64,000 bases of DNA from Eremomyces bilateralis CBS 781.70. Taxonomy: Eukaryota. The notes beneath the pieces are model-generated. The model saw only the letters and a program-made list of their open reading frames with translations, made no database searches and was not told where the DNA came from. Every line of letters starts with the position of its first letter. Within the stretch, counting starts at the first letter, position 1. Where the stretch lies: the NCBI GenBank assembly GCA_010015585.1, contig ML975174.1. One strand, written 5' to 3'. Both the position numbers and the translations under genes were made by a program. This document shows positions 13,481 through 54,770 of the stretch, piece by piece.

Positions 13481-16400
13481 ATGTCTTCGGCCGATCAACC
13501 CCCCGGAGCAGACGACGTGTCGAGTTCGCTACCAGGAGCTTTCCCAGGAAACGGTCAAGACTCAGCAGCGACGCCCAACCAACAGAGTTTGGCCGAAGGC
13601 GTGTACGCCAGACGCCATGAGTTCGTGCGACCGCGATCTCTGCGTATCCGCGTCGGCTCGTGGAACGTAGCTGCCTTGAAAGGCACGGAGCAAGATCTTG
13701 GGGACTGGTTTATCGACGGAAAAGGAGTCACGGAATCATTAGGCGGCCTGTCTGCCACGACTTCACGGGAAGAGCATGGAAGCCATTCAGAAAACGGCCC
13801 GGAGGTCGAGAATGTGGTCAACCAAGAGCTTCGAAGGACGCAGAAAGAGTCAACCGTGCCGAGGAACGACGACGGCGTTCCCCCCAGAGGGGATGAAGTT
13901 GGGCTTTACGTCCTTGGCTTGCAGGAGGTCGTGGATGTCGCCAGTCCCACGGAAAACATTCGACCGTATACCGACCCCGGTCCGGCGAACAAGTTCAAGA
14001 GTGCCATCGAGGCCGGGCTACCGGCTGGATACGAACTGGTGGCAGAGCAGCAGCTGATTGGCCTTCTTCTCTTGATATACGCAGCTCCTGACGTGGCGCC
14101 GGAGCTAAAGTCCATCAGCACCACATCGGTGGGGACCGGACTGATGGGATACATGGGCAACAAAGGTGCCGTTACTGCCCGATTGGTTCTTGGAGAAACT
14201 ACTCGACTGGTTTTCATCAATTGTCATCTTGCAGCTGGCGCTGATGGCGCTGCCTTGGAGCGCAGGAACTGGGACTTTGGCCAGGTTATGAGTCGGACGC
14301 GTTTTGATCCCATTGACGACGTTTTTGGCTTTCAGCATACCAATGCCGAATCGATCGGCGACGAAGATTTTGCATTCTGCTTTGGCGACTTTAACTATCG
14401 ACTGGACGGCACGCCTGGCGAAGACGTCCGGAGGCTTCTGATGCTTCACACGCGAAATGAGTACGATTTGGGGAAGTACGACGCCTCCAAGAACGAAGAG
14501 GATATCCGGAACCTGGGATCCGGAGACCGGCCCAAATCCCGCGCTCGACTATCTTCTAAGCTCTCTACGGTTGGGATCGCTGGCGAGCCCCGCAGCGACG
14601 AGAAACAGGATTCAGCCCTGGAGATTCCCCATGATCTCGATCCATCTTCGCTCCAAGCCACGCTCGCCTCTTTACTGCCTCATGACGAGCTTCAGCTGCA
14701 GATGAAGGCAAGAAAAGCGTTTCACGACGGTTGGAAAGAGGGGCCAATCAGATTTCTGCCAACGTACAAGTATGATGTGGGCACTGTCGGGGATTTCGAC
14801 TCCAGCGAGAAAAGGAGATGTCCTAGTTGGTGCGACCGGGTCGTCTATCGTACCAGGAAATCAAAGCTCGACTACGACTCCCAAATTAAAGAGGAACAGG
14901 AGTCAAAGAAGCGGGACGAGGAGATGAAATCTCGTGGTGTCGACGACACTTCCGCAGATGAAGGTGTTCTTTGGGACTACGACCCTGATGCGGACGGAGA
15001 TGCGGGCAGTTACGATGAGGACGCTGGCTTGGCCATGGAGCGGGTGATGACGAGAGAAGGCTTTGAAGATACGATTACGCTTGAGGCATACGGCTCGCAT
15101 CAACGAGTATTGTCCTCTGACCACAAGCCGCTCGAAGCCATCTTTTTGATCAAATACGACTCGGTCATACCAGAACTGAAAGCCAAGGTCCACCAGGAAG
15201 TCGCTCGGGAGTTGGATAGGGCTGAAAACGAGGGACGACCGACGGTGACCGTCTTAACCGACCCCTCCTCGGGCGACAACGAGGATGAGGAACTCTCGGA
15301 TACTAATCCACAAAACGCCGATAGCATAAACTTTGGAAAGGTCCGGTATGGGCAATTGCGGAGACGCCAACTCACCGTTGCCAATACGGGGCAAGTTCCT
15401 GCGCGGATCTCGTTCGTCGATCGAGCCGTGGCGGAAGGGCAATCCAGAGGTAGTACACCCCCCTGGCTTGTTATTGGATTCGACCGTGACCCGGAACCTA
15501 ATCCCCCTGCTTCGGCCGTCAGAAACGGCCTAGGACTGAAAACTTACCTTCTAGAACCCGGCGAAGCCACAACCGTGGTCCTGATCCTCCGCGTGGACAA
15601 CACGGATCTCGTCAAGGCCCTCAACAACCACACCGCCACTCTGGACGACGTGCTCATTCTCCGCGTTGAGAACGGCCGCGACCACTTCCTCCCCATCCAC
15701 GGCCACTGGCTCCGCTCCAGTCTCGGCTCCACCGTGGACAAGCTCATCCGCATCCCCGAAGGCGGCGTGCGCAAGCTCCAGCGCCAGAAACCGCACGGCA
15801 GCGGCAGCTCCAAGTCGTCGCGGTCAAGCGGAGCGTCCGCGTCCGGCGGCTCCGGGTCGGCACCCGCGACGGATCCCCCGGGGGTAAAGTGGTCGACACC
15901 TCGCGAATTATTCCGGCTGACGGAGGCGCTAGAACACATGATCCAGCGGTCGCTGGCTGAGTTTGATATGATTGCAGGCACAGACGATGTGGCACCGTGG
16001 ATCGAGAATGCGGCGTGGCCGTTCCATGAGGACTCCTGGACCTTCCAGGACGAGGAGAAGAGGAAGGAGATCTTGTGGAAGATTCAGGATGCCGTGGATT
16101 GCGATCATGGCTTTGAGAAGGCCTTCTCGCTGGAGGACACATCGATTCGCAAGGCTGAATGCCTAGCTGATGCGCTCCTTACCTTCCTTCGAAGCATGGA
16201 TGACGGTCTCGTCACCACGTCGCGGTGGGAGGCCCTGGAACTCACCATGATCTCCCACGAGAAGGCAAAGAAACACCGCAGCCTCGAGGAGGACCGCGCC
16301 TCGTTCCTCGAGAGACTGGCCGAGGCGCCGATCCACAACGCCTCGTTCTTCCTCCTGACCACCATGCTCTCACGCATCATCTCGGAAGTCGTCTCCGCGT

Positions 16401-16642
16401 CCAAAAGCCGTCATAGGGCGTTGCCACACCCGATCGAGCTCCCCGCGAGCCCGAGGGTGAGTCGGCGGAGGAAGACGCTGAGCGCGGACCCGGTTGAGGC
16501 GAGAAAGCAGCTGATGGAACTCAACTATGCGACGATATTCGCAGAGGCGGTGGTGAGGCCTTCGACGATGGCTAGCAATGCAAAGCACAAGTCTAGCCAT
16601 GAGCGGAAGGCAAGGTTCATCGAGACGTTCCTGAGAGGCTGA
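13481..16642 (+). CDS. Type II inositol polyphosphate 5-phosphatase, OCRL-like (1053 aa)
   Basis: 5-phosphatase motifs GSWNV, GLQE, GNKGAV, CHLAAG, FGDFNYR, FLPTYKY, PSWCDRV and SDHKP. These are followed by an ASH-like region (INFGKVRY..LTVANTGQVPA..LDDVLILRVENGRDHF) and a RhoGAP-like helical tail. Confidence 0.9.
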   Translation: MSSADQPPGADDVSSSLPGAFPGNGQDSAATPNQQSLAEGVYARRHEFVRPRSLRIRVGSWNVAALKGTEQDLGDWFIDGKGVTESLGGLSATTSREEHGSHSENGPEVENVVNQELRRTQKESTVPRNDDGVPPRGDEVGLYVLGLQEVVDVASPTENIRPYTDPGPANKFKSAIEAGLPAGYELVAEQQLIGLLLLIYAAPDVAPELKSISTTSVGTGLMGYMGNKGAVTARLVLGETTRLVFINCHLAAGADGAALERRNWDFGQVMSRTRFDPIDDVFGFQHTNAESIGDEDFAFCFGDFNYRLDGTPGEDVRRLLMLHTRNEYDLGKYDASKNEEDIRNLGSGDRPKSRARLSSKLSTVGIAGEPRSDEKQDSALEIPHDLDPSSLQATLASLLPHDELQLQMKARKAFHDGWKEGPIRFLPTYKYDVGTVGDFDSSEKRRCPSWCDRVVYRTRKSKLDYDSQIKEEQESKKRDEEMKSRGVDDTSADEGVLWDYDPDADGDAGSYDEDAGLAMERVMTREGFEDTITLEAYGSHQRVLSSDHKPLEAIFLIKYDSVIPELKAKVHQEVARELDRAENEGRPTVTVLTDPSSGDNEDEELSDTNPQNADSINFGKVRYGQLRRRQLTVANTGQVPARISFVDRAVAEGQSRGSTPPWLVIGFDRDPEPNPPASAVRNGLGLKTYLLEPGEATTVVLILRVDNTDLVKALNNHTATLDDVLILRVENGRDHFLPIHGHWLRSSLGSTVDKLIRIPEGGVRKLQRQKPHGSGSSKSSRSSGASASGGSGSAPATDPPGVKWSTPRELFRLTEALEHMIQRSLAEFDMIAGTDDVAPWIENAAWPFHEDSWTFQDEEKRKEILWKIQDAVDCDHGFEKAFSLEDTSIRKAECLADALLTFLRSMDDGLVTTSRWEALELTMISHEKAKKHRSLEEDRASFLERLAEAPIHNASFFLLTTMLSRIISEVVSASKSRHRALPHPIELPASPRVSRRRKTLSADPVEARKQLMELNYATIFAEAVVRPSTMASNAKHKSSHERKARFIETFLRG

Positions 16643-16985
16643 GCGGTGCTCCCAGGAGCGTTCAAGGACAGTAGGGCTATCTTCCTGGATAACATGACAC
16701 CCCCATGTTTAGTTTTGAAATAGGCTTTGACTTATTGATTATCCCGTATTATCATCTAGCGGATAAATGACCTTGCTCGACATTGAGAGCTATACATGCT
16801 TTTATTGCCCCTAAAGAGTGATTCGAAGCGGCTTACGATCCCACAAGCTATTAAAAATCATCCATATCCAATCCAATCCATCCATCAACCCAAGCAAACA
16901 CATTCTCGTTATATACATGTACTATTTCCACGCCAACCCTCCACCACCACCTAAACTCTCCCAAATCAATTCAAATCATCTCCCC

Positions 16986-19003
16986 TCACCCCATCGCCTC
17001 ACGCGCCGCCTCACCCACGAACCCCGCCAGCCCGGAAAAGAACACCCCCTTCAACACCGTCTCCCCCTCCTCCACTGCCCACTCCCCGGCCCTTACCAAC
17101 CGCCCCTTCCACGACTCCTGCTCCCGCTTACTCAGCTCCTCCCACCGCCTCGCCCCCGGATCCGCATGCAGCACCGCCTCGTCGTGGTGGAGCTCGGCCA
17201 GCAGCTTCCCACCCATGCCTTCAGTTTCCGGCGCTGTTACGAGGACGGCTTTGCCAGGTTCTAGAGGGGTAGAGTGTGGTTTTGCGGGCAGGACGCGTTG
17301 GCGGAGTTCGCGCAGCTTGGGGGTGGGCTGTTGGCGTGCGGCGTTCATCTGGCTGAAGGCGTCGCGGAGGTGGGAGAGGGGCTGTCGGATGGCGTTGGGG
17401 ATGAGCTGGACGGCTGGGGAGTTGGAGGTGGCGGTGCGGTAGTCGAAGAAGGATTGGAGGACGATGGTGGAGACGAGGAGGAAGGCGGCGAGGTAGATGA
17501 GGGGGGAGGAGATGGCGGAGAGGGCGGTGAGAGCGGATTGAGGAGGGGAAAGGAGGTGGCGGGGGGTGTCGGTGGAGGTAGTGGTAGTGGTTAGTGGGAT
17601 GTGCTCGACGGAGACGGTGTGGGAGATGGAGGTGGAGGCGAGGAAGAGGAAGGGTTTCGAGGAGGCGGCGGTGTATTTGGCGGGCGGGATAAACGGCGAG
17701 AAGACGACCTTGGTGATCGTGTGCGCGTGGACGTCCTTGATGGTGGTGACCGTTCGGAAGGGCCCGAACTGATCTGTTTTTTTGCCGCTATAGTCGACTG
17801 TAAGGACGACGATCGACCGATCCTGGCCCGCGACGGCGACGGCGAACTGTCTGGCTCCAGTGGTCTCGTCCGCGTCGAGAGCGCAAACGTCCATCCCCAC
17901 GCTCGGTCCCAGCCGTTTCGAGAACCGTTTCCGCAGCAGAATATCGCCGGGTCCACCGGAGGGATATACCTTCATAATGACCAGCTCGCAGACCTTACCG
18001 TTCGATGTGATATGGTTCTGGAGGAGGAGAAGATGATCAGCGGTCAGGAATCGGACGAACCGAAACTTCGATCGGCCGGTGGGGGATTCGAAAACGTCTG
18101 GGAAAGGCATCGAGAAGATCTTGTGCGGGTCGGAAAGCTTCCCTTTCGCCTTCCTCTTGGTAAAATCATACGCGATCTCGCCGAGGAACACTTCCCCGTC
18201 GGTTGCATAGGTGAGAAGAAAGTATCCGTCGTCCGGTTCCGCAATGTCCATGTCTATCACCTCCGCTGCTTTTGGTGGAGTAATCCGCCGAATGATGTCC
18301 TTCTCGTCCGGTCTCGTCACCGTCCCATTGAACACTACCAGTTCGCTCTCTTTGGCAAGGCCAGTAGCAATCGCCCCGATCCTCTTATTGCCATGGTGCT
18401 TGCCAGGTTTGATCGTTGCGGGACTCAACCGCAATATCCGCTGATACGCATCCACCCGCGCCCTGTCGTCCTTCTGGGTCGAAAACACGCGGCATTTGCT
18501 CAGCGGTTCGATCTTCCCGGGTGTCTGCTTCTCATCCTGCGCTCCGTTCGCATTTTTCTTCGACCCTTTGCCTGTCTTGGGCTCGGGATACACGACGCTG
18601 TACGTGCGAAAATGCTCGTTCTGCCCCCGTTTGCAGTCTTCGGTGCTGGAATTGATGCCGGCGAGCGCGATGACGCCGGCGCTGGTCCCTAGGTTCGCGA
18701 GCGTGTTGACGCTGTCTTCGGTACGAGGGAGGTCGATCTCGCCGACCTCTTCGATTGCGCTGCGGGAGGATACGTCGAGGAGTGTCTGTCGAAGTCTAAG
18801 CCGATATCATACAAGTCGGTTTACTCTAGCGGAGGAGCTTGTCAGGTACGGGTGAATGGACTTACAATCTTGTTTGGAACACCGCTCCTCCCTTCCCCTC
18901 CGCCGCCGCCAACTAGCAAGTAGCCGCGATTGTAGGGATCGAATGCGGCGGAGTACAGAGGGTAGTTGAGGGTTGCTTTCGCATATGATATTTGCGGCGC
19001 CAT
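16986..19003 (-). CDS. SEC12: Sec12/PREB-like Sar1 guanine-nucleotide exchange factor; complement(join(16986..18785,18866..19003)), ~645 aa
   Basis: N-terminus MAPQISYAKATLNYPLYSAAFD...LLVGGGGGEGRSGVPNKI (Sec12 K-loop GGGGxxxxGVxN). An 80-nt GT-AG intron at 18865-18786 restores the frame into the 535-aa ORF. Single C-terminal transmembrane segment (LIYLAAFLLVSTIVL). Confidence 0.85.
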
Positions 19004-19853
19004 GGTGTTGGATAGAGGAAGGTAGGCGCCCTCTGACCTTGCGACTTAAATATGGGAGAGATATATGGGATGAGAGGAACTCGAGGTATATCTATGATAA
19101 TAGAGAGAAGAAGAGCGTATTCAAGGATGGAGTTGTTGATGTGGCCTGAAGTCATGAAGCTCCAACGACCCGGATGTTGCGCATGGTTCATGAATCGAAT
19201 GACGCTGGATGACATGAATAGCGGTAGCAATCAGCGAATGAGAGTTATTTATAACACGCAATACAGAACAGCTAGGGAACTAGCGGTATTATAGTTATAG
19301 CTCGATTAGCTAATTAATGCGACGGACAATAACAACGCAAAGGAGCGAGAGGTCGAGAGCTGAGAGCATCATTCATTCACCACGTACACACACCACATAT
19401 TTCGAAGGGATGTTTTGAATCCTTTCCATATACAATGAGAGAATGTCCAAAAGTAATAGATAGACCATTTCCCAACCCCATTCTTTAGGATCCATCATTA
19501 AGCCATGTCCCATACATTTCATTCCAAGCGAGCGTGGGCGTCCTTTTTCGACCGCAGCAGTCCGCCCCCCATCCCCCAATCCCGAATCGTTAGCGACAGT
19601 AAGTCGATCATGATGCCCTTTTTTGATCCTCCCAAAATATCTACAAAGATCATGATCTAGTCCCATCAGTACCCAGCAGCAAGCGAGTGTCGGCGTAATC
19701 GAAACAGTTACGGGGAATAATAAAAAACCGCCAATCCCGATCCCAAGGTATCCTTATCCTAGAGAAAAACAAATATGCCACACAGACCAATGAAAGAGAT
19801 AACAAGGCTCCCCACAGGTAGAGGAGAACCGATAACAAAAAAATAAAATCAGG

Positions 19854-22800
19854 CTAGGTGGTCGCCGTCTGCACCTTCCTCAACCCCGCCGTCGTGGGCA
19901 TCGGCATCCCAAATGCCGACGCTAAAAGACTATTCTTCTTCTTCTTCTTCCCCTCCATCGGGAACAGCGTCGGTGGCCCGCTCGCACCCGCCGCGGGCGC
20001 CGCGATCGGATGGTGTCCGAACCCCCTCCGCTTCCCGATCGCCGTCGACGGACGCCGCGTCACATTGCCCTCGGATACGGTCTTCTTATGCGCGCTGCCC
20101 GCCGCGGTCGACGGACGGGGCATGGGGGGGAGGGGGAGCGTCGCGGACAAGGGGGGGAAGGGGGAGAAGGTGGCGGGCGGGGAGCGGAACGGGGAGGTGG
20201 AGTCGCGGGTGGAGGTGGTGGAGTTGGTGGTGGCGGTGGTGGAGGGGGAGAACATCGCGGGCGAAGAGGGCCGAACGTCGACGGTACCTCGGGAATAGCT
20301 CCTCGTTTCCCGCGGCTTGGGCAAAGGCGCACCGGCATCCGTCGGGGGCGATGCCGCGGCGTTCAGGAAACCGTAGCTGGTCTTGCGGGACCCCTCGAGC
20401 GGGCTCGGGATCTGGATGAGCAGCTCTTCGCTCTTCTGCGGGTCGAGGTCCTTGCGCACGGTGATTTTCGACCGGGGCTCAACGTCCTCGGGGCGGGCGG
20501 GCTCGGGAGAACCGCGGCCAGAACCGGCGCGCGTACCGGCGTCGAAGCGGAGCTGGGCGACGATGGAGTCGACGGTGAGGGCAGTGGTGCAGGCGTCGGG
20601 GACAGCGAGGTCGAGGGCGTGGGAGCGGGAATGGGAGCGGGAGTGGGTGCGGGAGTGGGTGCGCTGATGAGGGGGAGACTGGGTGGAGGTGGAGTTGCTG
20701 CGGCGGAGGTCGTTCATGGCGACGAGATGGGTTGGAGAGTCGCGGAGGTGAGTGGAGTCGATGGAAGAGAACCTCGAGTGGCGAGATCGAGCGGGGGGAG
20801 GGGTGCCGTTGGAACCTGGCACAGATGTGGTGCTGCCCGCCGATTTTGGTGGCGGGTTGGTCGACTGCTCCGTGGTCGGATGGGAGGTCGGAGCTGCCGT
20901 ATAGAACGGCGAGCTGTACGGATCAATGTTCATTGCAAACGGATCTCGCGCTCCCTCCGGGATGGAGGTGTCACTCTGGTTATTAACCTCGATCAGCGGT
21001 GACCTTCGTCGCCCATCCTTGGCTGGGACCGCCGGAATGGGTGGAAATTGGTAGCTTTGATCCAACGGCGTCAAGGCGCCGATACTATTGGTGCTGGCGG
21101 ACATGCCCGAGCGTCGGTCGAGGTCCGGCAAGGAGTCGGAGCTGGGAAGTTCGGGAAGGGGTCGCAAAGCCAGATCAGCATCGGGTCGAGGGCGCAGGGC
21201 ACTCTTGGCGGGAATCTGAGGCTGGGGAGAGCCGCCCGATGCAGGCGTGTCGAGTTCCCCCGAGCTTTCAAGAGTGGAGTCACCATTTTCCAGAAAGTCC
21301 TCCAGGTCGGGCTCATCAGCGTCAAGGATACTCCAGTCAAAGTCACAGTGAGCCTCTCCGCCTTCCTCATAGATCATGTCAATGACATCCTCCCAGGAGG
21401 CAGAGTCGGGTCGGTGTGCCTCGCTGGGTCGTCGGTGAACGGACGGCCGACGGGAGAGTGTGCTGGGTCGCCTCGAGTGCATCTTCGGGGGGGCCGTTGC
21501 CCCAAGGGTATCTGACATCTGGGACACCGGGCGCGGTCGGGGATGATTGAAGGGCCGAGCGAAAGATCGGAACTCGGACTGATCGGACTGGGCGGATTCG
21601 TTGGATCGGACCGCCACAAGGGAACTGCCTGGTAAGGATCGGGAGTGACGCAACGGCGATCCGAATGTGGTGTGGTCAGGCACCATGCTGGTTCGGCTGC
21701 CACGCTGCGAGGATAGGCTTTCTGGCTCTTCTTGGAGAGACTCAAGCTCCCTTTGGAAGGAGAGCGATTGCATACCAAGCGCCTCGGATGATAAAGGCGC
21801 ATGCTCTCCCGCCTGCTCCTGTGAAAAGTTCGGCAGCGGTGGTAGCGGCGGCAGCTCTTCATTGGCTTTCGGTGCGCCCGAACCAAACGTGGATGGAGAC
21901 TCGTCGGCCGGGAACTGAGGAGCCGTGGGAGATTCATGGTTCAATTCTTCGGCAATATGTTTCGGTGTCCACACGCGGCGAGACGCACGTCGTGGCGGAG
22001 GCGACTGTACCGGCGGGTTGTCGGGGAGGGCAGAAGCCATGGAGACGAATTGGAAGGATTCACTGGAACGAGCGGGTCGGACAGGTCGGATTGGCCGGAC
22101 CGGTGGAGGGCTTGAGATTCGCGTTGGCGGTACCACCGTCCCTGGAGATGGCGTCGGCGCAACTTGTGCTGCTAAATTCGAGTTGGCCTGGCTCCGGCGG
22201 TTCCATGACGGAGGGTCGAAAATCGACGAGGTAGACGCGTTCGTTGATGTTCGGCCGAGTGCAGAGAGGCCGGAAGGGCTGAATGATGGGGATTCGATGA
22301 TGGGGGCCGCATCGGCCTTGAGATCGGACGTGCGCATGTGCGAAACCTCACGTTTGGGAAGATGCGAAGCACTGGCTGCGGTAAACTCTGAGGCTAGCGA
22401 AGGAGATGGACCAGTCTGAGGACGGTTTTCGAAAAGAGAGGGAAGGTCGTTACGGCCAGTGTGAACCAGATGCTGGAAATCAGATGGAGCGGAGATCATC
22501 GTCTTGCGGTTGGATTCGCCTGGAACGGATAAGCGTCTGTCCTTGCCCGGCAGGATCACGTCGGATTCCGCGATTTCCTTACCTGGACCCGGGATTTTGA
22601 TTTCCTTCCCATGCAAATTGTTCCAGACTCCCCGGAATTTCGACCCTGGGGTGTCCTTCTCTTGCTCCGGCCTGAAGCCCGCGGACGACGGAGGGCGTTT
22701 CGCCGCCTTTTTTAATTTCTTGCCCACCGTACTGACGTACAGCAGCGACCTGGATGCAGCGTCCACACTATCGGTCGAACTAGGGGCATCCGAGAAACTC

Positions 22801-23120
22801 CGGCCATCGAGCGAAGAACTCCGCCGGGAGGAGTCGTCGCTCTTGTTCGACTCTCGGTGTGGCGCAGGGGAACGCGATCCGGAGCCAGCAGTCGAGGTTT
22901 GGGAGGTAACGGTGTTGCTCCGTGAGCGGAGCTGGAAGACGGAACCGCGCTTGTCATTCGAGCGCTTTGGCATGAGTCCAGTGGAACTGGTTGGGGATAT
23001 GATCGAGCTGGCTTTTCTCGAACTTTGCTGCTGCACGCTCTCCTTGCGCCGCTGCTCGGCTGCGTGATCCCAGCCAGCGGGATGCCGATTGGCATAGGCA
23101 TCGTCCAAGAAGAACCCCAT
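19854..23120 (-). CDS. CRIB/PBD-motif Cdc42/Rac effector-like protein, largely disordered (1088 aa)
   Basis: ISAPSDFQHLVHTG CRIB motif; SWEDVIDMIYE..EAHCDFDW motif; long uninterrupted Ser/Pro-rich ORF. Confidence 0.75.
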   Translation of the reverse strand: MGFFLDDAYANRHPAGWDHAAEQRRKESVQQQSSRKASSIISPTSSTGLMPKRSNDKRGSVFQLRSRSNTVTSQTSTAGSGSRSPAPHRESNKSDDSSRRSSSLDGRSFSDAPSSTDSVDAASRSLLYVSTVGKKLKKAAKRPPSSAGFRPEQEKDTPGSKFRGVWNNLHGKEIKIPGPGKEIAESDVILPGKDRRLSVPGESNRKTMISAPSDFQHLVHTGRNDLPSLFENRPQTGPSPSLASEFTAASASHLPKREVSHMRTSDLKADAAPIIESPSFSPSGLSALGRTSTNASTSSIFDPPSWNRRSQANSNLAAQVAPTPSPGTVVPPTRISSPPPVRPIRPVRPARSSESFQFVSMASALPDNPPVQSPPPRRASRRVWTPKHIAEELNHESPTAPQFPADESPSTFGSGAPKANEELPPLPPLPNFSQEQAGEHAPLSSEALGMQSLSFQRELESLQEEPESLSSQRGSRTSMVPDHTTFGSPLRHSRSLPGSSLVAVRSNESAQSDQSEFRSFARPFNHPRPRPVSQMSDTLGATAPPKMHSRRPSTLSRRPSVHRRPSEAHRPDSASWEDVIDMIYEEGGEAHCDFDWSILDADEPDLEDFLENGDSTLESSGELDTPASGGSPQPQIPAKSALRPRPDADLALRPLPELPSSDSLPDLDRRSGMSASTNSIGALTPLDQSYQFPPIPAVPAKDGRRRSPLIEVNNQSDTSIPEGARDPFAMNIDPYSSPFYTAAPTSHPTTEQSTNPPPKSAGSTTSVPGSNGTPPPARSRHSRFSSIDSTHLRDSPTHLVAMNDLRRSNSTSTQSPPHQRTHSRTHSRSHSRSHALDLAVPDACTTALTVDSIVAQLRFDAGTRAGSGRGSPEPARPEDVEPRSKITVRKDLDPQKSEELLIQIPSPLEGSRKTSYGFLNAAASPPTDAGAPLPKPRETRSYSRGTVDVRPSSPAMFSPSTTATTNSTTSTRDSTSPFRSPPATFSPFPPLSATLPLPPMPRPSTAAGSAHKKTVSEGNVTRRPSTAIGKRRGFGHHPIAAPAAGASGPPTLFPMEGKKKKKNSLLASAFGMPMPTTAGLRKVQTATT

Positions 23121-26100
23121 GGTGTTGAATTGGGGTCTCCGTTTGGAGAACGGACTGGACTGGGTTGAGCCGGTTCAAACCGTCACAAGTACAGTACAGC
23201 TGGACCACTTCGAAAAAAAACCCCGAGTCGAATTCGGCAAGGAGCGATGATGGACGCGCGCGGACGGTCAGAGGATAGATCCTAATAAATACTTTTGGAA
23301 TGGCGAATTCCACCGAATCCTTGTTGTCTGCACAAACACCTCGAGCGTCAGTTCGGTACTAAGATAATGGCAAAACTGTCTTGAAACAGAAACCAGCAGA
23401 TTGGGGTTCTCGAATTGATCGGATGGCTGCATAAGAAAAAGGAAATTCCCCAATACGTGGGTGGTCGTGGGGGCTCCGACATTCAACGGCTGTCCAGCCT
23501 CAAAACTAGAGGCTGAAGTTGACTCGCGCAATTACAGGTCTAATAGGCGACGGAAATGAGAAAATCGGAGCTGTATGACGCCATGACGGAGGAATTACAG
23601 TCCTTTCTGGACCAACAGAACTCGAGAAAATAATGTTCGGGATTGAACTAACCACAGTCAACGACGCGGACGTCGGAGCGGACACATTCTTCTCTTTCTC
23701 GAGGGCGGAATGGCGAGCGATCTCAATTGCAAGGGTCGTTTCGTCGTATTACGAGGCGTCACTCACTCACTGCGACGTGCAGATGGCAAATTCGGAGCGG
23801 AGGGTCTCGTAGTTGAAACGTCCGCGCAAATAATTCGGAGTGCAATTATTTTGGGATTTCGTGATACTGTTCAGCGCGGAAAGGAGTGACGTCTCGCGTG
23901 GTGGCGGGGATGTTTGGACGTTTGGTTGGGCCGGGTTCGGAGTGCGAAATTTCTTAGCAGGTATGTACCAACACGGCGCAAGTCTGGTTAGTCCAGGTGG
24001 TTCCGAAATCCGAATTCTCCAGGAAGGCTGATCCCGATGATCTTGGGCGTGCTCTGCAATGGTGCAAGCGATTTTTAAAAAAGGGACATCGTGAACGGAA
24101 ACGGACTGGCGGACAGCAATCATAAAAGGAACGAAATAGAAAGCTTTGAGGGGAGGGGCGCCGTGGGCAGAGGAGAAGGAATACAATTTAACAGCGGCGG
24201 ATCCGGCCCTGATCAGCGCGTTATGATATACAAGCCCTTGCACAACCTTCACGCGAACACCAGGCACAAATTTGGTGCTACCGCATCGACAATTCTGCCC
24301 ATTCGGCCTGGCTTGTGACACTTGGACCCCATAAGCTGTCGGGTGGATCAGGATTGGACGGATTTGATGACACCTTCTGCCGAACCTGGTGCACATCAAG
24401 GCTCCGGAACGGGATGAGGCCTGAGGGCGTCGCTTTGAAAGTGGTCACAGAGCACACCTGATGGATCTGGTAGTGCTTGCTCATGGTCCCAAACAACCGC
24501 GGGGAAAGGGCATCGTCTCTCTACTTACTCGTGCACTTTGGGGGGAACCTGGCCTTCGATGCAGGATGCATGCAGCATGCAGAAGGCGTCTCTCACTGGC
24601 AAAAGATACTTCCCTGCTTTAGGCGGAGAATCCAGGCATACTCCACTCGCCGATCCTAGCCACAAGGCGCGTCGATCGGACGAAGAGCTCGGAACCAAGG
24701 GATCCATGGTCCGGTCGGATCAAGGGCACTGAAAGCGCACGCAACCGGGATCAACCTGCTACAAGGGCCGGCCAAGCTCAGCGCCGAGCGCAGTGGGTAA
24801 CTGGTGGACTGCGAAGAGTGGAGTGGGATGGTGAATAAGGGGAGAAAGCAGGGGCAATAATCAGTATCCCCAGGTATTACCTTGGATTCACGTTGACGCC
24901 GGGGTAGAACTGTGTTGAAAACATAACAGGTTTGCAGTTCCATGAGGGGGCAGTAAAAGTATCGGGTTCTTATTCGTTAACGGGCCGAATGAAGATATCA
25001 GGGCTCCCTGTCCACACATGGATCAGGAGTTCAGAATGCCAGGGTTATGGTTGTTGGTGCATCAATTCAACCCGAAGTCAGACTAGACGCGTGTAGTCAT
25101 GACAGTTTCTGTTCGGTCGGTATCGGTACCACTGTTCTCCTTGCTTTTGATTCTTCGACCTTCGATTTGTTCCCTTTTTGTCTCCTAAGTTACCAATCCT
25201 AACGGTTTTCAGTTGCCTAACCAGTGACGCTACCGTATGAGAAGCGGGGAACGGCCTGCTAGCGGCCGTTACTAACGCTTCTGTAACGGCTTCAGTGCCT
25301 CACCTCTTTGTCGGGTCCCAACACGATCAGCTGTCAACGTCTCGAATTTCTGCAGGCAGGACATACCCTAAGCTAGCATCGAACAGGGCGTGGAAACTGG
25401 AAACACCTGCCATTATTGAGGCTTATATCTTGCCACCATCGATACACCATACATGTATCTGATACCTCCGCAAAAGCATCCTCCCCATCACGCGACGATG
25501 GCCGATAGGCGAAGATTGGATATGAGGAATAAGGGCTCATCCCAGTGCCCAGGGGCGAGCAGAAATCCAGGTTTTCCTGCCCATTGTTGTCAATGCTCGA
25601 CACCGAGCATAGAGTTCGGCAGTGCGCTCGGTGAACAATGCAATAATATTGTTCTTATAATTTAGATGAGATACGGCGTCCAAACTCCAATGGGACCGGT
25701 GAGATGTCTGTTCGCGATTTTGCATGGAAAAGAGTGTCGATCCTGCCTCGGCATTTTGCGGTGACAATCTACGGGCTCTACGTACATTCCATGTCCTGTT
25801 GTCTACGAATCCTGATGGCTGGGATCGATCCCATCACCCATGTCCAGTGTCCACGCAGGGGAACCATTAGGTTATAGGTATTAGGTACTCAGGAGGCAGG
25901 CCATCATGACTTCAGGTTTGGCTTTGACTGCTTGAATCTGTGCCCGAGAAACAAGTGAGGTTATAGGCCATCTGAAGATGAGTTGTTTATATAATACAGA
26001 TATAGCGGCTCATTACCTCTTGGAAAAAAAGGTCTGCTTCTAGTTTCCAAAGGAGCGGAAGTATACGTCAGAATCATCGTTTACTGTCGTCCACCACCAC

Positions 26101-33400: not shown

Positions 33401-33754
33401 ATATTGAGTTTTAATCAGTTAAGAAGAAGAACGAAGATGCATAATGCTTGGTAGAGCATTCGTATATGAATATGGATATAATTAATATAGACAGACCTCA
33501 AAACAACAGAACATTGGTCACTTTCAATATGGATAGTTGAAGACATCTCAAATGCCAACTGTAGAGATTTCCACTACCACAATCCCAATCTGCCTTTAAT
33601 ACCAATAGTAATGAAGCCTATTTGGCAGTATTGTACAATAGGAATCTCACCTTTTCAAAATGTAGGGGTGAACAATGGTTGAGACTCCATCTTGATATTG
33701 AATTGTGTGTGTAATAAACAACTGCAACTGCAGCTGCAAATAGCTGTAGCACTG

Positions 33755-33914
33755 TTATCTCAGCTTGGGCTCAGACGTTACCCAAGCCATGACCCTGGTT
33801 AAGCTAAACCGTAACCAGATTAAACCCATGTTTAGCGTAAATACTACTCACGTGATTGTAACTGTCTCGTGTAACGTCTGAGAAACTTCAGAGAATTTTC
33901 TGTGGAGTCGTACA
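33755..33914. repeat. Element 1 left terminal structure (outer TIR plus inner inverted block)
   Basis: Outer TTATCTCAG...; CTCAGACGTTAC (33770-33781) is perfectly inverted at 33871-33882 (GTAACGTCTGAG). Confidence 0.85.
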
Positions 33915-34126
33915 TGGTGATAATTGCTAGAAATAATGAGATTGTGAATAACATCATATGGAGAAGTTGAGTGGGCTCCAAAAGTTGATGCGATATAGAT
34001 AAAGGTTTGTTAAACCATCCTATGGCTTTTAAATCTCAAATTTCTAACTGTTAATTCTGTAACTAGCTTTTTAAAACTACTTGTTGCGTCATCTGTCGTA
34101 CAGGTTCACTCTCCAGGTCATCTTCC

Positions 34127-36934
34127 ATGCGACTGAAGCGCCGGCGAGGCCGCGCCCATCGATGTGAAACCGCCCCAAACAAGAATCCTGACTCTGCACA
34201 ATTACCTCCTATCGAGAAAACGATTGAAGAACGGATATTCATGATTGCAACGACACCAGAGAAAGAGTTATGTTCGGTACTGCAAGAGTTGGTTAAGGCC
34301 TGTCTGATACGAAAGAACATCATATACCAGCATGATCTTATCTTCCACGGTTTGCAGCGACTCCTGGGTGGTCGGCTCCCACGTATCAACCAGGTTCGGG
34401 CTCTTCGACGAGTTGTTTTTCGGCATGGGGATACTATTATCTCTGCGAAGACTGGTTTTGGGAAGAGCATCATCTTCCATGCTATCCCAATCTTTATTGG
34501 CAGAATTGTCATCCAGTTGATTCCTTTAAGCAAGCTTGGAGAGGAGCAGAAGAGGTCGATTGAACAGTTACCAGGGGCCAGGCCTTCCCTTGTTACAGCG
34601 GAGACTAAGCGAAGGAATCCGAACCTGTTAAAGGAGATTGCAGCTGGGATATATACCCATATCTTGATGGGTCCTGAGCAAGCAGTTAGCGATGAGTTTC
34701 GTGGTTTGCTGTTAAGCCCCGACGTAAAGAATAGGATTGGTGTGGTTGCAATTGACGAGCTCCATGTTATGGAGCAATGGAAGGAATTCCGGTTGGAATA
34801 TCTCAAAATCAGGGAATTACGACGGTACTTACGTGCTGATACCATCTGGTTTGGTTGTTCTGCCACTTTGAACAAGGCCACAGAACAAGCTGTTATCTAT
34901 TATGGTGGTTTCTACGAAGAGACACACCATGAACTGCCACTCAAGATCATCCGAGTCTCAATCGATCGACCTGATATCTCACTTAACATTTTGCCCATTA
35001 AGAGAGGAAAGAGCAAGGCTTACCAACGGCTATGGTTTCTAGTTGATCATGCATTAGAGCATCCAACTAGTAGGACGGAAGACGACCTCCAGCGAATCCC
35101 GAAAACGATTATCTTTGTAGATGGACTTCAATCGGTAGCGAATATCTCTGCATCCTTAGAGCGGCATCTCTTTGTTCAAGGGTTTGAACCAACCATGGTT
35201 CGGGATGCAATTGGTGTATATACATCGAATACTCCACGATACGATCAGGACTTGCTGTACGATAAGATCAGATCCCCATGCTCTTCTCTTAGAGTAGTTG
35301 TTGCAACTACTGCTCTTGGAATGGGTATGGATATTCCTGATATTATGGTGGTTGCTCAATGGGGACTTCCAATCGGCCATGATCTCGGTGATATTTGGCA
35401 GCGGGTTGGACGGGCTGTTCGAGTAAAGCAGGCAATCAATGGGATGGCTTTTATATTCCTGCCATACTATGCGTTCGACTCAATGGGACAGGATCCTGTT
35501 CAAATGCCTAGTTCGCGTAATAATCAGCCATTGTCTCAGAAGAAAAGGGGAAAGCGGAACACAGTCCGGTTACCGAATACCACCCATTCACCATCGCCAT
35601 TATCGCAAGGCGATGGAGCTGAGTCTGACTTCTCTGAACAGTCTGATAATACCGAAGCAGCCAGTCAAGAGAGCTCGAAATTAACTGTCCCAAAGTCTAA
35701 GAAGAGGGACAAGTCAGATGGTCCACCTCTATGGACTGTTGATGAACTTCAGCATAGGGCAACCCTCCCAATAACGATCCGTTCTCTTGCAAACGCGCCA
35801 TGTAGACGGCAGGTATTCCTTACGGAGTTCAATGAGGACCAATGCGAGCCAGATACTACCCCCATTCGAGCAGACAAGAAGGTCTGTTGTAATGGGAAGG
35901 AGTGTAATCTGGCATTGTTCCAGTTGCCACCAATGCCTGATACTTCCCTTAAGTCTACCAAACCTGGCCGAGAGACTAAGGCAGGTATTGCGCTGCATCT
36001 ATTGGTTATATGGTGTCTTGAACAGGTGGAATCGATCTTCCCACGAGCGCAGCAAATGATTCCAATCCCAGCTGGGGTGATCATTCCTCAAGAAGCGCAA
36101 TGGGCTATTGCTCGTATGTATACTTGTGTGAAGAACTCAACAACGATACCTATACCAGATCGGGAGGCATTGTTACCCCTCTTTGATATCGAAAACTGGG
36201 AATATCGGAACGTCCTCCTTGACGATTTGTTGGTATTCCTTGTCCAGATAGTTCCAGCCGTATACTCGAAGCATGCCGCGATACTAGAGGAACGAAAGTG
36301 CAAGAGGAACCTGAAGGCACTGGCCGGAAAGGTTACAGAGGCTGCTGCTCAAGATTTGGGGAGTAATCCTCAAGACTTGAGTATTATACCTAATCCCACT
36401 CTATCTAAAGAGGAAGAGGTTGCTCAATATGTCCACAGTCGTCAGTCGGCAGATGATAGGGATGGGCTCCGGGTTATCATGCATAACGAGCTACTTGCGC
36501 AGAAGCTTAATGAGTATCGGGAAACATTCAAACCCCGCCATTGGCCCTCGTTTTCATCACTGCCGGAGATATCGGAAGGGTCGCAGGAATTAGGAAGCTC
36601 GTTTGTCGTCGGAGGGGAGTCATCGTTCGTATCGCAATCTAGCGTTAAGTTAGATTCTGGTATAGATAATAAGACTACAATCCCCTCGGATATAAAAGCT
36701 CCTATACCTGTTAACATCCGGTCGCGCAGCCAAACGCCCAAACGAGCTACTCAAGATTCTTCTTCGGGTATGCGCAAGAGAAGTCGGACGCCGCTTAGGG
36801 AAGTATCTGGAAACCATGAGAAAGGACAGATCACTAGACAAGATAGGCCGAATACGCCTAAACGAGCTGGTCTTCGTACTCATGTACAGTTGACGCCAAA
36901 AGGGAGGGATCTATGGGGGAAGAGTGGTAAATAG
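34127..36934 (+). CDS. Transposon-encoded RecQ-like SF2 DExH helicase (935 aa)
   Basis: Motif I AKTGFGKS, Ia LIPL, Ib GPEQ, II AIDELH, III GCSAT, DRPDI, IV KTIIFV, V VATTALGMGMD, VI WQRVGRAVR; RecQ Zn-site-like CRR...CCNGKEC; uninterrupted ORF inside the TIRs. Confidence 0.9.
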   Translation: MRLKRRRGRAHRCETAPNKNPDSAQLPPIEKTIEERIFMIATTPEKELCSVLQELVKACLIRKNIIYQHDLIFHGLQRLLGGRLPRINQVRALRRVVFRHGDTIISAKTGFGKSIIFHAIPIFIGRIVIQLIPLSKLGEEQKRSIEQLPGARPSLVTAETKRRNPNLLKEIAAGIYTHILMGPEQAVSDEFRGLLLSPDVKNRIGVVAIDELHVMEQWKEFRLEYLKIRELRRYLRADTIWFGCSATLNKATEQAVIYYGGFYEETHHELPLKIIRVSIDRPDISLNILPIKRGKSKAYQRLWFLVDHALEHPTSRTEDDLQRIPKTIIFVDGLQSVANISASLERHLFVQGFEPTMVRDAIGVYTSNTPRYDQDLLYDKIRSPCSSLRVVVATTALGMGMDIPDIMVVAQWGLPIGHDLGDIWQRVGRAVRVKQAINGMAFIFLPYYAFDSMGQDPVQMPSSRNNQPLSQKKRGKRNTVRLPNTTHSPSPLSQGDGAESDFSEQSDNTEAASQESSKLTVPKSKKRDKSDGPPLWTVDELQHRATLPITIRSLANAPCRRQVFLTEFNEDQCEPDTTPIRADKKVCCNGKECNLALFQLPPMPDTSLKSTKPGRETKAGIALHLLVIWCLEQVESIFPRAQQMIPIPAGVIIPQEAQWAIARMYTCVKNSTTIPIPDREALLPLFDIENWEYRNVLLDDLLVFLVQIVPAVYSKHAAILEERKCKRNLKALAGKVTEAAAQDLGSNPQDLSIIPNPTLSKEEEVAQYVHSRQSADDRDGLRVIMHNELLAQKLNEYRETFKPRHWPSFSSLPEISEGSQELGSSFVVGGESSFVSQSSVKLDSGIDNKTTIPSDIKAPIPVNIRSRSQTPKRATQDSSSGMRKRSRTPLREVSGNHEKGQITRQDRPNTPKRAGLRTHVQLTPKGRDLWGKSGK

Positions 36935-37381
36935 AAGAACAAAGATTTGGAGGTGTTTTGGTTGGGAGAACTTCGGATAGCCCTTTTCAGACTAGTGTCC
37001 TTTTATTTCCAGATTTGTACCAACTTCAAAGGAAATGAAGTGGGTAGGAACCAATTGAATTATGATTGTATATACATCATCTTGTAGCTCTTAATAAGAG
37101 GATTCCAGCAATGTTATCATCTTTGAAAAACATTAAGGATTGGTAGAGATATTATAGTAAGACACACCTAAACCTGCTAGATACTAGGCTTTTATCTACA
37201 CATTGACCCCATTCCATACTCAATATCCCCCAGGTTGTGCAGCACGAGGCACCCTAGTCTCAACTATGAATTGGTTAATGAGCGACGGGCTCAGTAAACC
37301 AGTTCGAAACTAGGCCTTGGAGACGAATAGTTTCGATATAGAGGGCTTCGAGGGATATAGGTGAAGTGAGCGATAACGTAG

Positions 37382-40051
37382 TCAAAGAATATCATAATCC
37401 TCAACAAGCCCATCTTCACAAGCCTCAGTGTAGGTAATTGCTGGTGAAGTCTCAGAGTTATGAGGATTTAAATCCATCTCTTCGTCAAGGTAAGGATCAG
37501 CCTGGGGGATGATACTAGAGCGGACTGGTATCCGATTGTTGAAGGAATTGACCTTTTGTTCCAAGACCTCAGCACCAATCCGGAAGATATCAGGTGCGTC
37601 CCAACCAACAGCATCGCGAGGTTGGATAGTGAGCAAAGGACTGCGTAGATATAGTTGAAGGGCGCGACTGAAGATATCCCGTTGATCGGCTTTGGTTGTG
37701 TGTCGATCGCTTTGGGTAAACCCAAATGAGTTTTCCCATGCCCCACGAATCTTGGAGAAGACATTACTTAATAATGCGACTCTACCAAAGGTTTTGTCTG
37801 CATTATGTGTTGAATTCTTCAATAACTTCATATCAATCTTGTATGCGCAATTAACGTGTTCAAGGGCTAGGTCAATACCCTTGAACTGGCCTGGTTTGCC
37901 ATGTAAATTCACAAGACTGGATGAGAGTATTGCGTCGCGGAGAATCTTCTCTGAAACGCATTCAGATAATATCCAACGAAGATGGAGCATTTCATCACCA
38001 TACTTGTGCTGTCCAGTTGCGTGGAAGATAACTGCAAGTGGGTCGATTAAACGGTCAATCCAGCCGATGTCGCCATTCTTGACTGCTTTACGCAAAGAAA
38101 GGAAGATGCTGATCAACTGGACAAGTCGGCAGAGACTTCGAAATTCAAGTCCATATTGTGTCGTGTCCCATGCCTCTAGAGAGAATGCCAGTGTGCAGAC
38201 CTCTTTCATTGTAGAGATAAGTTCTTCTGGCTCCAGGTTCTGGATAATTAGATCCAGTTTCGAACTTGGACTGGAATCTTCAAGGAATGCCTTTTGGATA
38301 TGTCCTCGTCTCGTAAGAACATGATACCATAGCATCAAGACACGAGCATAAAATGATTGCTTGAGCAGGGGGTCAAACATGTAGAACTTTGGGGATTCTC
38401 GAGTATATCCTTTTCGATCCCAGTAGATGATATCCGATAGAAGCGTTGCATCTGATGGTAGTGAAGGCTCTTTATCCGACGGTAGTGAAGGCTCCGTATC
38501 AAAATGGATACGGACGATCGTTAGGATGAGATTCATAAGGACATGGAACAGTCCAGATGGACCTAACATCCATCTCCGTCGGTCAAAAGGTAGAATAGCA
38601 TTCTTCTGGGCCTCCTTTAGAGTACGGATATGTTGGGCTGTTTTCTGGTCTCCAAATACCAACCAGAGACGGTTTGTGAAGTCTTCGCTTGGTGGCTGGG
38701 ATTGGAAACCCAACTGTCGGATCCAAATATCTTCATGAACTCCGTAGGTTCCTTGGATTGTTCCTTCATCAAAAGGGGCAGCCCGAAGATGATGGATGTT
38801 TGTTACATTCCCACCCGCATGTAAACGGTTGATCTCTGGATAAGCAGGGACAGCAGACGGCTGTGATTGGAAAACCAAGTCAATACTTGTAGAATGAACG
38901 TGTTGTAGGGCCTCGTAGACTAAGTGAATGTCTATACTCTGCTTTTTCTCATCATACTTTAAGCCATCGGCTTTACAGATGTCTTTAAAAGAGAGAAGTT
39001 GGGAAGGATCGAAACTTGATTGGAATAAACCTTCATCAGGCAAATATGGGTTCTCAACCAACAGGCATGTTGTCAGATTCCGCATAATATGGGTTGAACC
39101 AATTGTCTGCTCGCGCACAGTATCTTTGAAGTTGAAGTTATCATAAACAAGGACTGTCTTTGGCTTTTTGGCCAGCATTGGGAGGCGGTTCTAATTAAAA
39201 GTTAGAAGAAAAGATCTAACTTATGAAATAAACCAACCTACCTTCGCCTTGAGTGCCATACCTGAAACCTCCTCATTAATACTTTGGTATGTCTCAGTGA
39301 GCCCAAGACCAGCAGCTGTATCCACGACCCGCCGCTTTGTCCCACTAGAGATCATATATAACCCCAACTGCTTAGCGTATACATTTGATGTGTTCCGCTT
39401 ACGACTCCGGCATGCTACTGCAGTCATCGTGTACATTTGCCCAATTGTCCCTTTTGAAAGAGTCTCCCTTTGATCTGGTTCTTGACTGCGACAGTTTCGA
39501 AGAACTAGATCTAAACAGCGGTACCATTCCGGTGCCCCAGTCTTGATAACTTTTCGGACATCTTCAAGGTCGATATCCCATTCGTGGGCGGTATCAGGAT
39601 CGAAGGTATCAAAGTATTTGTATTCGGCCAAGCCATCAAGTTCTTTGAGGAGAGGTTGCCAATTATGGCGGCTTGAAGGGTGATGCCCAACAACCTCACG
39701 GATTTCCTCCTCTTCTAAGAGTTCACGGAATATTCCAACCCTTGTAGACCTCCCTAAGGTACCATGGTGCTTATCCGATAGTAACCAGGCGCGGAGGAAT
39801 TCTTTAAACGTGAACCGCTGCTCTCGCCACAGATACAATGTTTCGCGCAATTTATCAAATGGTTGAAGTTTTTTTTTTCCTGCAACACGCCGAATCTGCC
39901 GATATCTAGTAGGGGATCGTCTTAGGGAAGGGCGTTTTGGTCGGGGAGTCGAACCTGAGGGTGAAGACGAGGTAGAGGGCGAGGATGATAAATATGTCTC
40001 ATCTGGCGGTATCGAAGATAACTCGCTGGAGATGAAGGGTGGGGTCGACAT
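37382..40051 (-). CDS. Putative DDE transposase (DUF6589/Academ-like); complement(join(37382..39190,39242..40051)), ~872 aa
   Basis: A 51-nt GT-AG intron at 39241-39191 (GTAGGT donor, CTAAC branch, TAG acceptor) joins the 276-aa and 598-aa ORFs in frame. Conserved motifs VYDNF, FGDQKT, GLFHVLMN, KNGDIG, GQHKYGDEML, LVNLHG and IDLALEHVN. Confidence 0.82.
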
Positions 40052-40228
40052 GGTGAAAGGGAAGATGATACGTTCTTGGACTGTGGAGTGGTTGGATTGG
40101 TCCTGAAACTTGATGAAATGTAGAAGTCAAGGGGTAGAATCAATTTGTGAAAACAGATTAGCGATAAACATTATGTATCAAGCACACTTAGCGATAGGAG
40201 TTCTCTCACCTATTTCATGATATGAAGC

Positions 40229-40412
40229 TGTACACCTCCACACAAATTATGCAGACGTCTCTCAGACGGCAGTTGTACCAACTGCCTTGATGGAATATGA
40301 TTGGTCAATATTTAGTGGCACATGCTAAAGAAGAGGCTGGGCTTTAATGGGTATAGCGGATCCCCATAATGGCCAGGGGGTACCATTGCCGCCTGAGTCC
40401 CAACTGAGATAA
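40229..40412. repeat. Element 1 right terminal structure
   Basis: CTCAGACGGCAG (40261-40272) is inverted at 40386-40397 (TTGCCGCCTGAG, 10/12). 8-bp stem GGCAGTTG-tac-CAACTGCC at 40268-40286. Terminal CTGAGATAA. Confidence 0.8.
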
Positions 40413-40668
40413 TAGCACTGCAGTAGCATACAATATGGTATTAAGGCATCAAGGCGACGAGCTGCATCATCGGCGAACAAGCTCCAAAGTTAAGGGACAT
40501 CCACAGGGAGCTCACAACCAAAGAGGAGGATTAATTCTTCACGCCCACTGTTTCTTGTTCATGCATTGATGCAAACAGTTACCGATAAAGACTTGCTAGA
40601 ACAATTCATAGCCGTGAGCCCATCATTATTGCACCGGAACTTGTAATATAGCCTCCACATCGCCCAGC

Positions 40669-54061: not shown

Positions 54062-54508
54062 TGGGGGAATAGATAGGTAGGTTGGGTTGAGCGTGGTGTT
54101 GGGAGAAGGCCGTCTAATAATTCGGGAGAGTTTTGAGTCTGGAGTCTCCTCCCTTGGTGCAGATGGTCGTTGGTAAAAAGCGCTGGTCGTGTATACTATT
54201 ATTTTTACGAGGAGGGGTTCAGCGAGGCCGTAGGTCCGTTTCGTGCAGTCTAGTCGACAATGCAAAAGCGTGTTCCGCCAAATGAAGTCAGGATAGAGAA
54301 TCGGAACGTTGTGAACACGTCGATGTTTGTGAGGAAAGTGAAACTGGCAGACTAGGAGCTTGAATCTGAGTTGAGTATGACCTTATCACGTCTTACATGT
54401 CCCTCGTATTGCCATCCTTAGTGTCTAGTGATCTCTCAGCTCTAGCCTCTAGGCCACTAGTCGGCAGTACAATGGACTGTGGCGTCTGAATTGTGTGAGG
54501 CTGTGAAG

Positions 54509-54623: not shown

Positions 54624-54770
54624 GGTTTTGGGTGTGTGCGGAGAGCTTTCATACCAAATGGAAGACCATCTTTAACTCCATTTTCATCCACAACCACACT
54701 ATGCTCCGTCAATTAAATATAACCATTCGATTCCCCTGCTTTTTCTCCATAATTGATTGAATTTTGGGTC

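Follow-up and report, generated by a model that had tools for sequence, protein, structure and literature searches.

The window, that is the whole stretch of 64,000 nucleotides analysed here, holds two DNA transposons whose ends all fold back on themselves. The preliminary description had noted that each of the four ends contains a CTCAG-based 12-mer together with its inverted copy, and it had left two readings side by side: inverted binding sites for the transposase, or stem-loops formed on single-stranded ends, where a RecQ-like helicase could act. The question is then what these fold-backs are, how far they are kept in related elements, and what they may do in a transposon that encodes a helicase.

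Two transposons with fold-back ends

The limits of the two elements, as read from their flanks, are 33755-40412 (E1) and 54509-60524 (E2). Both have TTAYCTCAG termini and 8-bp target-site duplications. In E1 the duplication is TAGCACTG, with the left copy at 33747-33754 and the identical eight bases directly outside the right terminal motif, at 40413-40420. In E2 it is CTGTGAAG, at 54501-54508 and again at 60525-60532. The left terminal motif of E1, TTATCTCAG, lies on the plus strand at 33755-33763; its inverted copy, on the minus strand at 40404-40412, reads CTGAGATAA on the plus strand. The corresponding motifs of E2 are TTACCTCAG at 54509-54517 on the plus strand and, on the minus strand at 60516-60524, one that reads CTGAGGTAA on the plus strand. 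The surroundings of both elements are gene-rich DNA with ordinary fungal genes (7859-23174 and 61292-63040), among them SH3/BBC1-AIM3, an inositol 5-phosphatase, DCP1 and a SNF2/HSA/QLQ chromatin remodeller.

All four 12-mer pairs that had been described are present, with spacers of 89, 113, 65 and 58 nucleotides. The left stem-loop of E1 (33770-33882, plus strand) has CTCAGACGTTAC at 33770-33781 and its exact reverse complement, over 12 nt, at 33871-33882; the 89-nt loop between the arms holds GCTAAACC. Exact matches to this 12-mer are confined, in the window, to its two arms. Folded as DNA the stem-loop has a z-score of -3.72, and none of 200 shuffled sequences is as stable. The right stem-loop of E1 (40261-40397, minus strand) is the weakest case in the window: the arms, at 40386-40397 and 40261-40272 around a 113-nt loop, are complementary at 10 of 12 positions and can be extended to 19 nt with three mismatches, the z-score is -2.19, and the minimum-energy fold lacks the closing stem. 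Just inside the inner arms the E1 ends are again similar (33875-33914 versus 40229-40268, 75%).

The 12-mer of E2, CTCAGGCTATTT, is exact in all four arms, at 54522 and 54599 (spacer 65) and at 60430 and 60500 (spacer 58). With at most one mismatch it has four matches in the window where 0.22 are expected, and none of 100 shuffles reaches four. On the left (54522-54610, plus strand) a 14-bp stem, 54522-54535 with 54597-54610, closes a branched loop with ACTATACC; the DNA fold has an energy of -22.6 kcal/mol and a z-score of -7.66. On the right (60430-60511, minus strand) the 12-bp stem is followed by a second tier of 9 bp and the loop contains two small hairpins, at -21.2 kcal/mol and a z-score of -7.90. 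In both cases 0 of 200 shuffles are as stable. The arms are longer than first noted, as they reach 23 nt with three mismatches in the right end and 14 nt in the left.

E1 had been said to pair better within an end than between its ends. This holds: 7 of 9 variable positions match within an end, against 2-3 of 9 between ends. In E2 the contrast is weak (7 of 9 against 5-6 of 9) because the 12-mer is common to both E2 ends.

End architecture in related elements

One metagenome scan with a 13-sequence alignment gave 80 loci that are 31-88% identical to the E2 transposase exon in their best segment, and TTAYCTCAG is the terminus of these relatives too. With the terminal-motif pattern 63 ends were recognised, which cluster into 26 end types. 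The internal inverted pair is kept in other members of the family: 61 of the 63 recognised ends have a fold-back, which begins 12-15 nt from the terminus and has arms of 8-23 nt. The two exceptions are L056 at 228, which has no fold-back, and L080 at 20127, a decayed copy with 6 nt. Fold-backs are also found in ends that the pattern missed.

From the outside inwards an end consists of the target duplication, TTAYCTCAG, 3-6 nt, the 5' arm, a loop of 21-99 nt, the 3' arm and a conserved block. The 5' arm is made up of CTCAGRC and 2-16 variable nucleotides, and only CTCAGRC, which forms the base of the stem, is conserved in sequence. In left ends of the L027/L028-L030 type the stem is just 9 bp. 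The stem-loop keeps its position relative to the terminus rather than to the genes.

The loops often have small hairpins of their own and a CTA(W)ACC motif. This motif, which was defined after the data had been seen, is present as CTA(W)ACC, CTAACC or CTACCC in 14 of the 26 end types, always in one orientation (the reverse is found in 0), compared with 0.84 in shuffles. Its sites in the window are 33804-33810 and 54562-54568 and, on the minus strand, 40353-40359 and 60482-60487. A second conserved block is seen about 18-45 nt inside the inner arms, for instance at 60375-60400 of the window and around 503-516 of L020. One clade has CCATACAAAT(A/T)T here and another TGC(A/G)TAAATTT..GTATG; a TATA-like promoter element is one possible identity, an additional binding site the other.

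The target duplication is 8 bp in all three six-kb elements with readable flanks (E1, E2 and L020). Among the large relatives (n=11) a 9-bp duplication is exact in seven and has one mismatch in two. The relatives of 10.5-12.5 kb (L042, L051, L057, L061, L063, L065, L066, L070, L071, L073 and L080) come from two metagenome samples. They contain many stop codons and C-to-T and G-to-A changes, visible in the arms as CTTAG and TCTAAG, and this decay looks like the RIP type. Further, they have an extra 5-6 kb between transposase and helicase.

Covariation between the arms

Covariation between the two arms was tested across the family, as had been proposed, and is positive. At arm positions 8-16 of the 26 non-redundant end types, 180 of 234 within-end comparisons match, a figure that is somewhat inflated by taking as inner arm the best-scoring partner anchored on the conserved core, and that comes from end types related by descent and not fully independent, with many large copies decayed by C-to-T and G-to-A changes. 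With permuted partners the mean is 79.8 (sd 8.6), and 180 is not reached in any of 10000 permutations, the highest value being 120. At position 8 the pairs are CG in 11 end types, GC in 8, TA in 6 and TG in 1, and each of positions 8-13 shows three or four types of Watson-Crick pair. In L035 the core itself is changed on both sides, with CTCAA facing TTGAG. For 15 ends RNAalifold predicts the closing stem with 12 pairs, of which six have compensatory changes.

The left and right outer arms of an element have only 0-4 of 9 variable positions in common in 17 of 19 end pairs, versus within-end matches in the 19 left/right pairs that are mostly 7-9 of 9. The two exceptions are E2 and the pair of L070, which is really two right-type ends.

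As background we used the 82 other CTCAGRC sites. Of these, 72 score 7 or less and 10 score 10 or more; all ten high-scoring sites except L055 7192 are CTCAG-based hairpins of the same kind, mostly at places where an end is visible or likely but escaped the pattern. A chance origin of the 12-mer pairs is ruled out by the shuffles, the permutations and these background sites together. As single-stranded DNA the whole stem-loops have a mean z-score of -5.8, with 24 of 26 below -2, versus a mean of -1.5 for the loops alone, with 8 of 26 below -2.

Complementarity without sequence conservation, together with different arms at the two ends of an element, argues that the pairing itself is under selection while the arm sequence drifts. 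Selection on complementarity within an end had been suspected from E1, and the excess of matches over permuted partners (180/234 against 79.8) and the contrast between left and right ends now bear this out.

The same data bear on a reading in which the arms are paired protein-binding sites, i.e. inverted CTCAG-type sites bound by a dimeric transposase with looping of the DNA, so that the hairpin never forms. The CTCAGRC core is indeed conserved, with three copies per end of which one is in the terminus, and in other transposon superfamilies it is common for an end to have several subterminal sites that face either way. However, 2-16 positions beyond the core are complementary within an end and differ between ends and between families, the spacing of the arms varies from 21 to 99 nt with no fixed phase, and some loops carry extra hairpins. 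We regard it as very improbable that paired sites are the whole explanation. Of the two readings left open at first, covariation thus favours the base-paired structure and disfavours plain binding sites. The conserved CTCAG box, at the terminus and at the base of the stem, may nonetheless be bound by a protein, and each reading may therefore hold in part.

The encoded proteins

E1 and E2 each carry two genes that face inward, one for a RecQ-like SF2 helicase and one for a DUF6589 protein. In Pfam, DUF6589, DEAD and Helicase_C are the only domains found in them. The helicase reading frame of E1 lies on the plus strand at 34067-36934 (955 codons, stop to stop) and matches DEAD and Helicase_C; that of E2 lies on the minus strand at 57574-60078 (834 codons). 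Against TIGR00614, the RecQ family model, the E1 protein scores E 2e-25 and the E2 protein E 1.3e-32, both below the curated cut-off, and the RecQ family is the best NCBIfam model for the helicase. The best match of the E2 helicase in PDB is RECQ1 (E 2.5e-18), and WRN and RecQ match too, more weakly. The RecQ-like nature of the helicase, assumed at the outset, is confirmed by these PDB matches and by TIGR00614 as the best model, below its cut-off as it is.

The transposase has about 900 residues in two or more exons, of which the large one is DUF6589. In E1 the gene is on the minus strand at 37382-40126, with exon frames 39221-40126 and 37382-39190 (DUF6589, Pfam E 2.5e-65); its N-terminal exon resembles that of E2. 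In E2 it is on the plus strand at 54753-57498, with exon frames 54753-55661 and 55672-57498 (DUF6589, E 1.1e-67) and with introns. The helicase is convergent to the transposase in 39 of the 80 related loci, and the rest are mostly short contigs.

An NCBIfam search gave no model for DUF6589, and the DUF6589 profile has no real match among PDB sequences. At E 0.001 or better there are 1390 clusters of relatives, commonest in Mollusca, Basidiomycota, Mucoromycota and Arthropoda. No longer fused relatives, with XPG or helicase fusions, were found, and in 14 long relatives Pfam shows DUF6589 alone, which is weak evidence on fusions in general. Transposase exons 80-90% identical to that of E2 are present in Stachybotrys, Eremomyces, Fusarium, Metarhizium and Dactylonectria (P0001-P0022). 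Such identity suggests a recent horizontal spread of the E2-type family among distantly related ascomycetes.

An AlphaFold model of the E2 DUF6589 exon, made with an alignment of 60 sequences, is confident (pLDDT 88, pTM 0.88). With this model Foldseek gives no match at E 0.001 or better, and the top eight are all Hermes. Structural re-alignment gives Z-scores of 9.4 for the P element transposase (289 residues aligned), 9.0 for Tn5, 8.6 for Hermes, 7.2 for ISCth4 and 6.2 for RAG1. As modelled, the DUF6589 protein has a DDE core of the RNase H-like type into which a helical part is inserted, and the acidic residues conserved in it are D17, D176 (in G-D-Q) and D426/E430. Between D176 and E430 the only near-invariant histidine is H211, in A-L-F-H, with no C or D three residues earlier.

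Relation to known transposon families

AcademH is reportedly a lineage of the Academ superfamily, described by Kojima in 2020 (Mob DNA 11:15). According to the available parts of three sources, AcademH elements have terminal inverted repeats and encode a DDE transposase together with an SF2 helicase, the latter in a gene of its own, and they occur in fungi and animals (PMC10045372, PMC10799480, PMC5751038). Their target duplications are given as 9-10 bp in the accessible part of PMC10045372. E1 and E2 are alike in having a DDE transposase, a separate helicase gene and terminal inverted motifs, and most of their large relatives have 9-bp duplications. They differ in the 8-bp duplications of E1, E2 and L020, against the 9-10 bp reported in that part of the source.

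We compared DUF6589 by eye with positions 16-40, 169-245 and 424-465 of the RNase_H_Academ profile (465 positions, supplement of PMC5751038), i.e. with these segments of the source. In them the profile reads v-l-t-g-d-q at 187-192, w-l-v-p-f-l-g-f-f-H at 214-223 with l at 229, and W444...D450-e-a-l-E454...K462 (PMC5751038). The E2 counterparts are L-A-F-G-D176-Q, then W202...F-H211 with L217, and W422...D426-R-S-L-E430...K437. The distance from W to H is 9 and that from H to L is 6 in both, and D-x-x-L-E is found in both. Within the segments compared by eye, the blocks GDQ, W..P....FH.....L and D..LE are thus common to DUF6589 and the Academ profile, with near-identical spacing. At profile positions 16-40 no evident match to DUF6589 around D17 was seen by eye. 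The presence of DUF6589 clusters in both fungi and animals matches the AcademH host range and lends weak support. Based on the profile blocks, as aligned by eye, and on the helicase gene, E1 and E2 are AcademH-like and are placed in or next to AcademH.

Other families were considered. Kolobok elements have TTAA as their target. KolobokH elements, according to the available part of one source, are fungal DDE transposons that encode a RecQ helicase, which is placed downstream of the transposase domain (PMC9587614). On this partial account the RecQ-type helicase on a fungal DDE transposon is a likeness; in contrast, E1 and E2 encode the helicase in a gene of its own, convergent and on the opposite strand, they lack the C/DxxH signature, and the 8-9-bp duplications have no fixed sequence; KolobokH was rejected on these grounds. 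P element and hAT (Hermes) transposons make 8-bp target duplications, and they are the closest solved folds to the E2 DUF6589 model (Z 9.4 and 8.6). However, they have no helicase and DUF6589 has no sequence similarity to PDB chains. The hAT and P superfamilies were rejected as the C/DxxH signature is absent and the PDB profile search is empty, and the similarity is at the level of the fold only (Z 8.6-9.4).

Helitron-like elements combine an HUH Rep nuclease with a Pif1-type helicase and are not known to duplicate their target. The available part of one source states that the ends of HLE1 and HLE2/Helentron are partly defined by a short stem-loop near the terminus, whose structure outweighs its sequence (PMC11417382). 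As far as that part goes, E1 and E2 resemble them as helicase-encoding eukaryotic transposons with a stem-loop close to the terminus. The differences are that Helitrons have the stem-loop at one end together with HUH and Pif1-type functions, whereas E1 and E2 have it at both ends together with a DDE fold, a RecQ-like helicase and 8-9-bp duplications. A Helitron-like identity was rejected on the DDE fold, on the finding of only DUF6589, DEAD and Helicase_C by Pfam, and on the presence of 8-9-bp duplications.

The bacterial IS200/IS605 elements carry a subterminal hairpin at each end, at a distance of a few to about twenty nucleotides from the cleavage site, and these hairpins are recognised as folded single-stranded DNA. 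E1 and E2 share with them the subterminal hairpins at both ends. In contrast to E1 and E2, IS200/IS605 elements have an HUH transposase and are not known to have inverted termini, a target duplication or a helicase gene.

In the accessible parts of the literature compared here, outside which the original AcademH account lies, we found no description of covarying subterminal stem-loops for AcademH or for helicase-carrying DDE transposons. Literature on stem-loops near termini concerned Helitrons and other families only, and nothing relevant on DUF6589 was found in it. Stem-loops that lie near the terminus and depend on shape are known from HUH transposons, namely Helitron-like elements and IS200/IS605.

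DNA or RNA structure

A stem-loop next to a gene may also act in the transcript. It would then be part of the 5' leader of the transposase or helicase mRNA, or be placed a short way upstream of it, and could control translation, stability or silencing; on this reading the covariation would stem from pairing in RNA. Both ends of an element do face a gene, with the genes pointing inward. Further, in run X3, which we presume, as a guess, to be RNA, a spliced contig joins 59991-60202 to 60320-60524 and so crosses the right stem-loop and reaches the final base of E2; the intron at 60203-60319 (minus strand, CT..AC ends), in the 5' leader of the E2 helicase transcript, is defined by this junction of 60202 with 60320. 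The left end of E2 is also covered in X3.

Against an RNA structure, the distance to the terminus is fixed at 12-15 nt, and the CTCAG core is common to the cleavage-site motif at both ends, whichever gene follows. Stem mismatches in the 26 end types are G:T in 8 cases and A:C in 10, so neither strand is favoured and mismatches compatible with G:U in the sense strand are not in excess. Contigs cannot show where an RNA starts, and those of X3, presumed RNA, enter several flanks. A DNA signal fits better than an RNA signal because the distance to the terminus is fixed, and we consider an RNA role, the main alternative to our preferred reading, possible but rather on the unlikely side.

In the E2 transposase gene, X3 contigs show introns at 55624-55669, between the exon frames, and at 57384-57434, near the 3' end (GT..AG). 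X3 contigs run into several different flanks, with loose ends at 54509, which looks like read-through or admixed DNA. If X3 is RNA, it shows that copies of the family are expressed in the X3 organism.

A possible role in end recognition

The reading that we prefer is that the subterminal stem-loops are a hallmark of a fungal AcademH-like transposon family and serve as a cis-acting DNA structure for end recognition, opened or folded with the aid of the helicase; in our judgement this stands at about even chances. Our best guess is that the DNA would fold during transposition, as single strands or as a cruciform. The helicase of the element would open the end, and each opened strand would snap into a hairpin, giving either a cruciform or a single-stranded stem-loop. 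The transposase could then read the double-stranded CTCAG boxes, at the terminus and at the base of the stem, together with the shape, and in this way the ends would be marked and brought together before TTA is cut. Of the variable arm positions nothing but pairing would be required. Points against this reading are the weak right stem of E1, the 9-bp stems in left ends of the L027/L028-L030 type, the lack of a strand bias among the stem mismatches and the transcript-like contig in X3.

RecQ-type helicases are found in several eukaryotic DDE lineages (AcademH, KolobokH), and a stem-loop 12-15 nt from both termini is a plausible substrate for them. If the fold does act on the DNA, a DDE transposase would read DNA shape, something otherwise known from HUH transposons. 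Pfam DUF6589 gains a likely function, that of an Academ transposase core, which aids the annotation of fungal and animal genomes. For finding ends, TTAYCTCAG followed after a few bases by a CTCAG-based hairpin can be used as a signature.

A further-reaching proposal is that AcademH-type transposons do not move by plain cut-and-paste of duplex DNA. The helicase would melt the ends and so let hairpins or cruciforms form, the DDE transposase would recognise folded DNA in the manner of the unrelated HUH enzymes of Helitrons and IS200/IS605, and the junctions and the composite element described below would be traces of circular or hairpin-primed, partly replicative events. We think that this is unlikely.

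Junctions and composite elements

In run X1 two DNA contigs join the right end of E2 (60524) to its left end (54509) with 7-8 nt between, at depths of 194 and 241, where single-copy flanks have 203-223. Such an end-to-end junction is either a head-to-tail tandem pair that shares one target or the junction of a circle. In another X1 contig (depth 220.7) the flank base 54508 is joined to 54602 on the opposite strand, in the left inner arm. The contig depth of run X1 summed over 54516-54731, which is no copy number, is about 24,000; this is 2-8 times that of the transposase half, and the excess over the helicase half is larger. It may point to numerous short derivatives in which the left end of E2 is retained. 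Short non-autonomous elements with two ends are seen in one clear case among the related loci, within L070.

In L070 (6892-19400) a right-type end at 6892, in forward orientation, and after it a reversed left-type end without its last 8 nt directly adjoin a full element, whose left end is at 8255. The outermost right-type end on either side is bordered by the 9-bp duplication CTACTTGCC, as though the whole head-to-head composite had inserted in one piece. The X1 junctions and the L070 composite could be tandem insertions or rearrangements, or traces of unusual intermediates.

These arrangements bear on whether the fold-backs are a by-product of end regeneration, in which one arm is copied from the other by fold-back priming, template switching or gene conversion and the fold has no selected function. 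The right-to-left junctions of X1, with 7-8 nt between the ends, the opposite-strand joint within the left stem-loop of E2 and the head-to-head arrangement in L070 would all fit such copying. However, the position, the core and the loop motif are stable across transposases that are about 30-40% identical, suggesting a function, and degenerate copies lose their pairing by transitions (CTTAG, TCTAAG), with no continuing homogenisation in dead copies. A mere by-product is therefore highly unlikely in our view, and a selected stem-loop is preferred.

Finally, in two loci an element adjoins the stem-loop of another, 1 bp after it in L028 (2475-2586) and about 25 bp away in L020 (6599-6680). Such insertions could reflect a preference for these structures or chance nesting.
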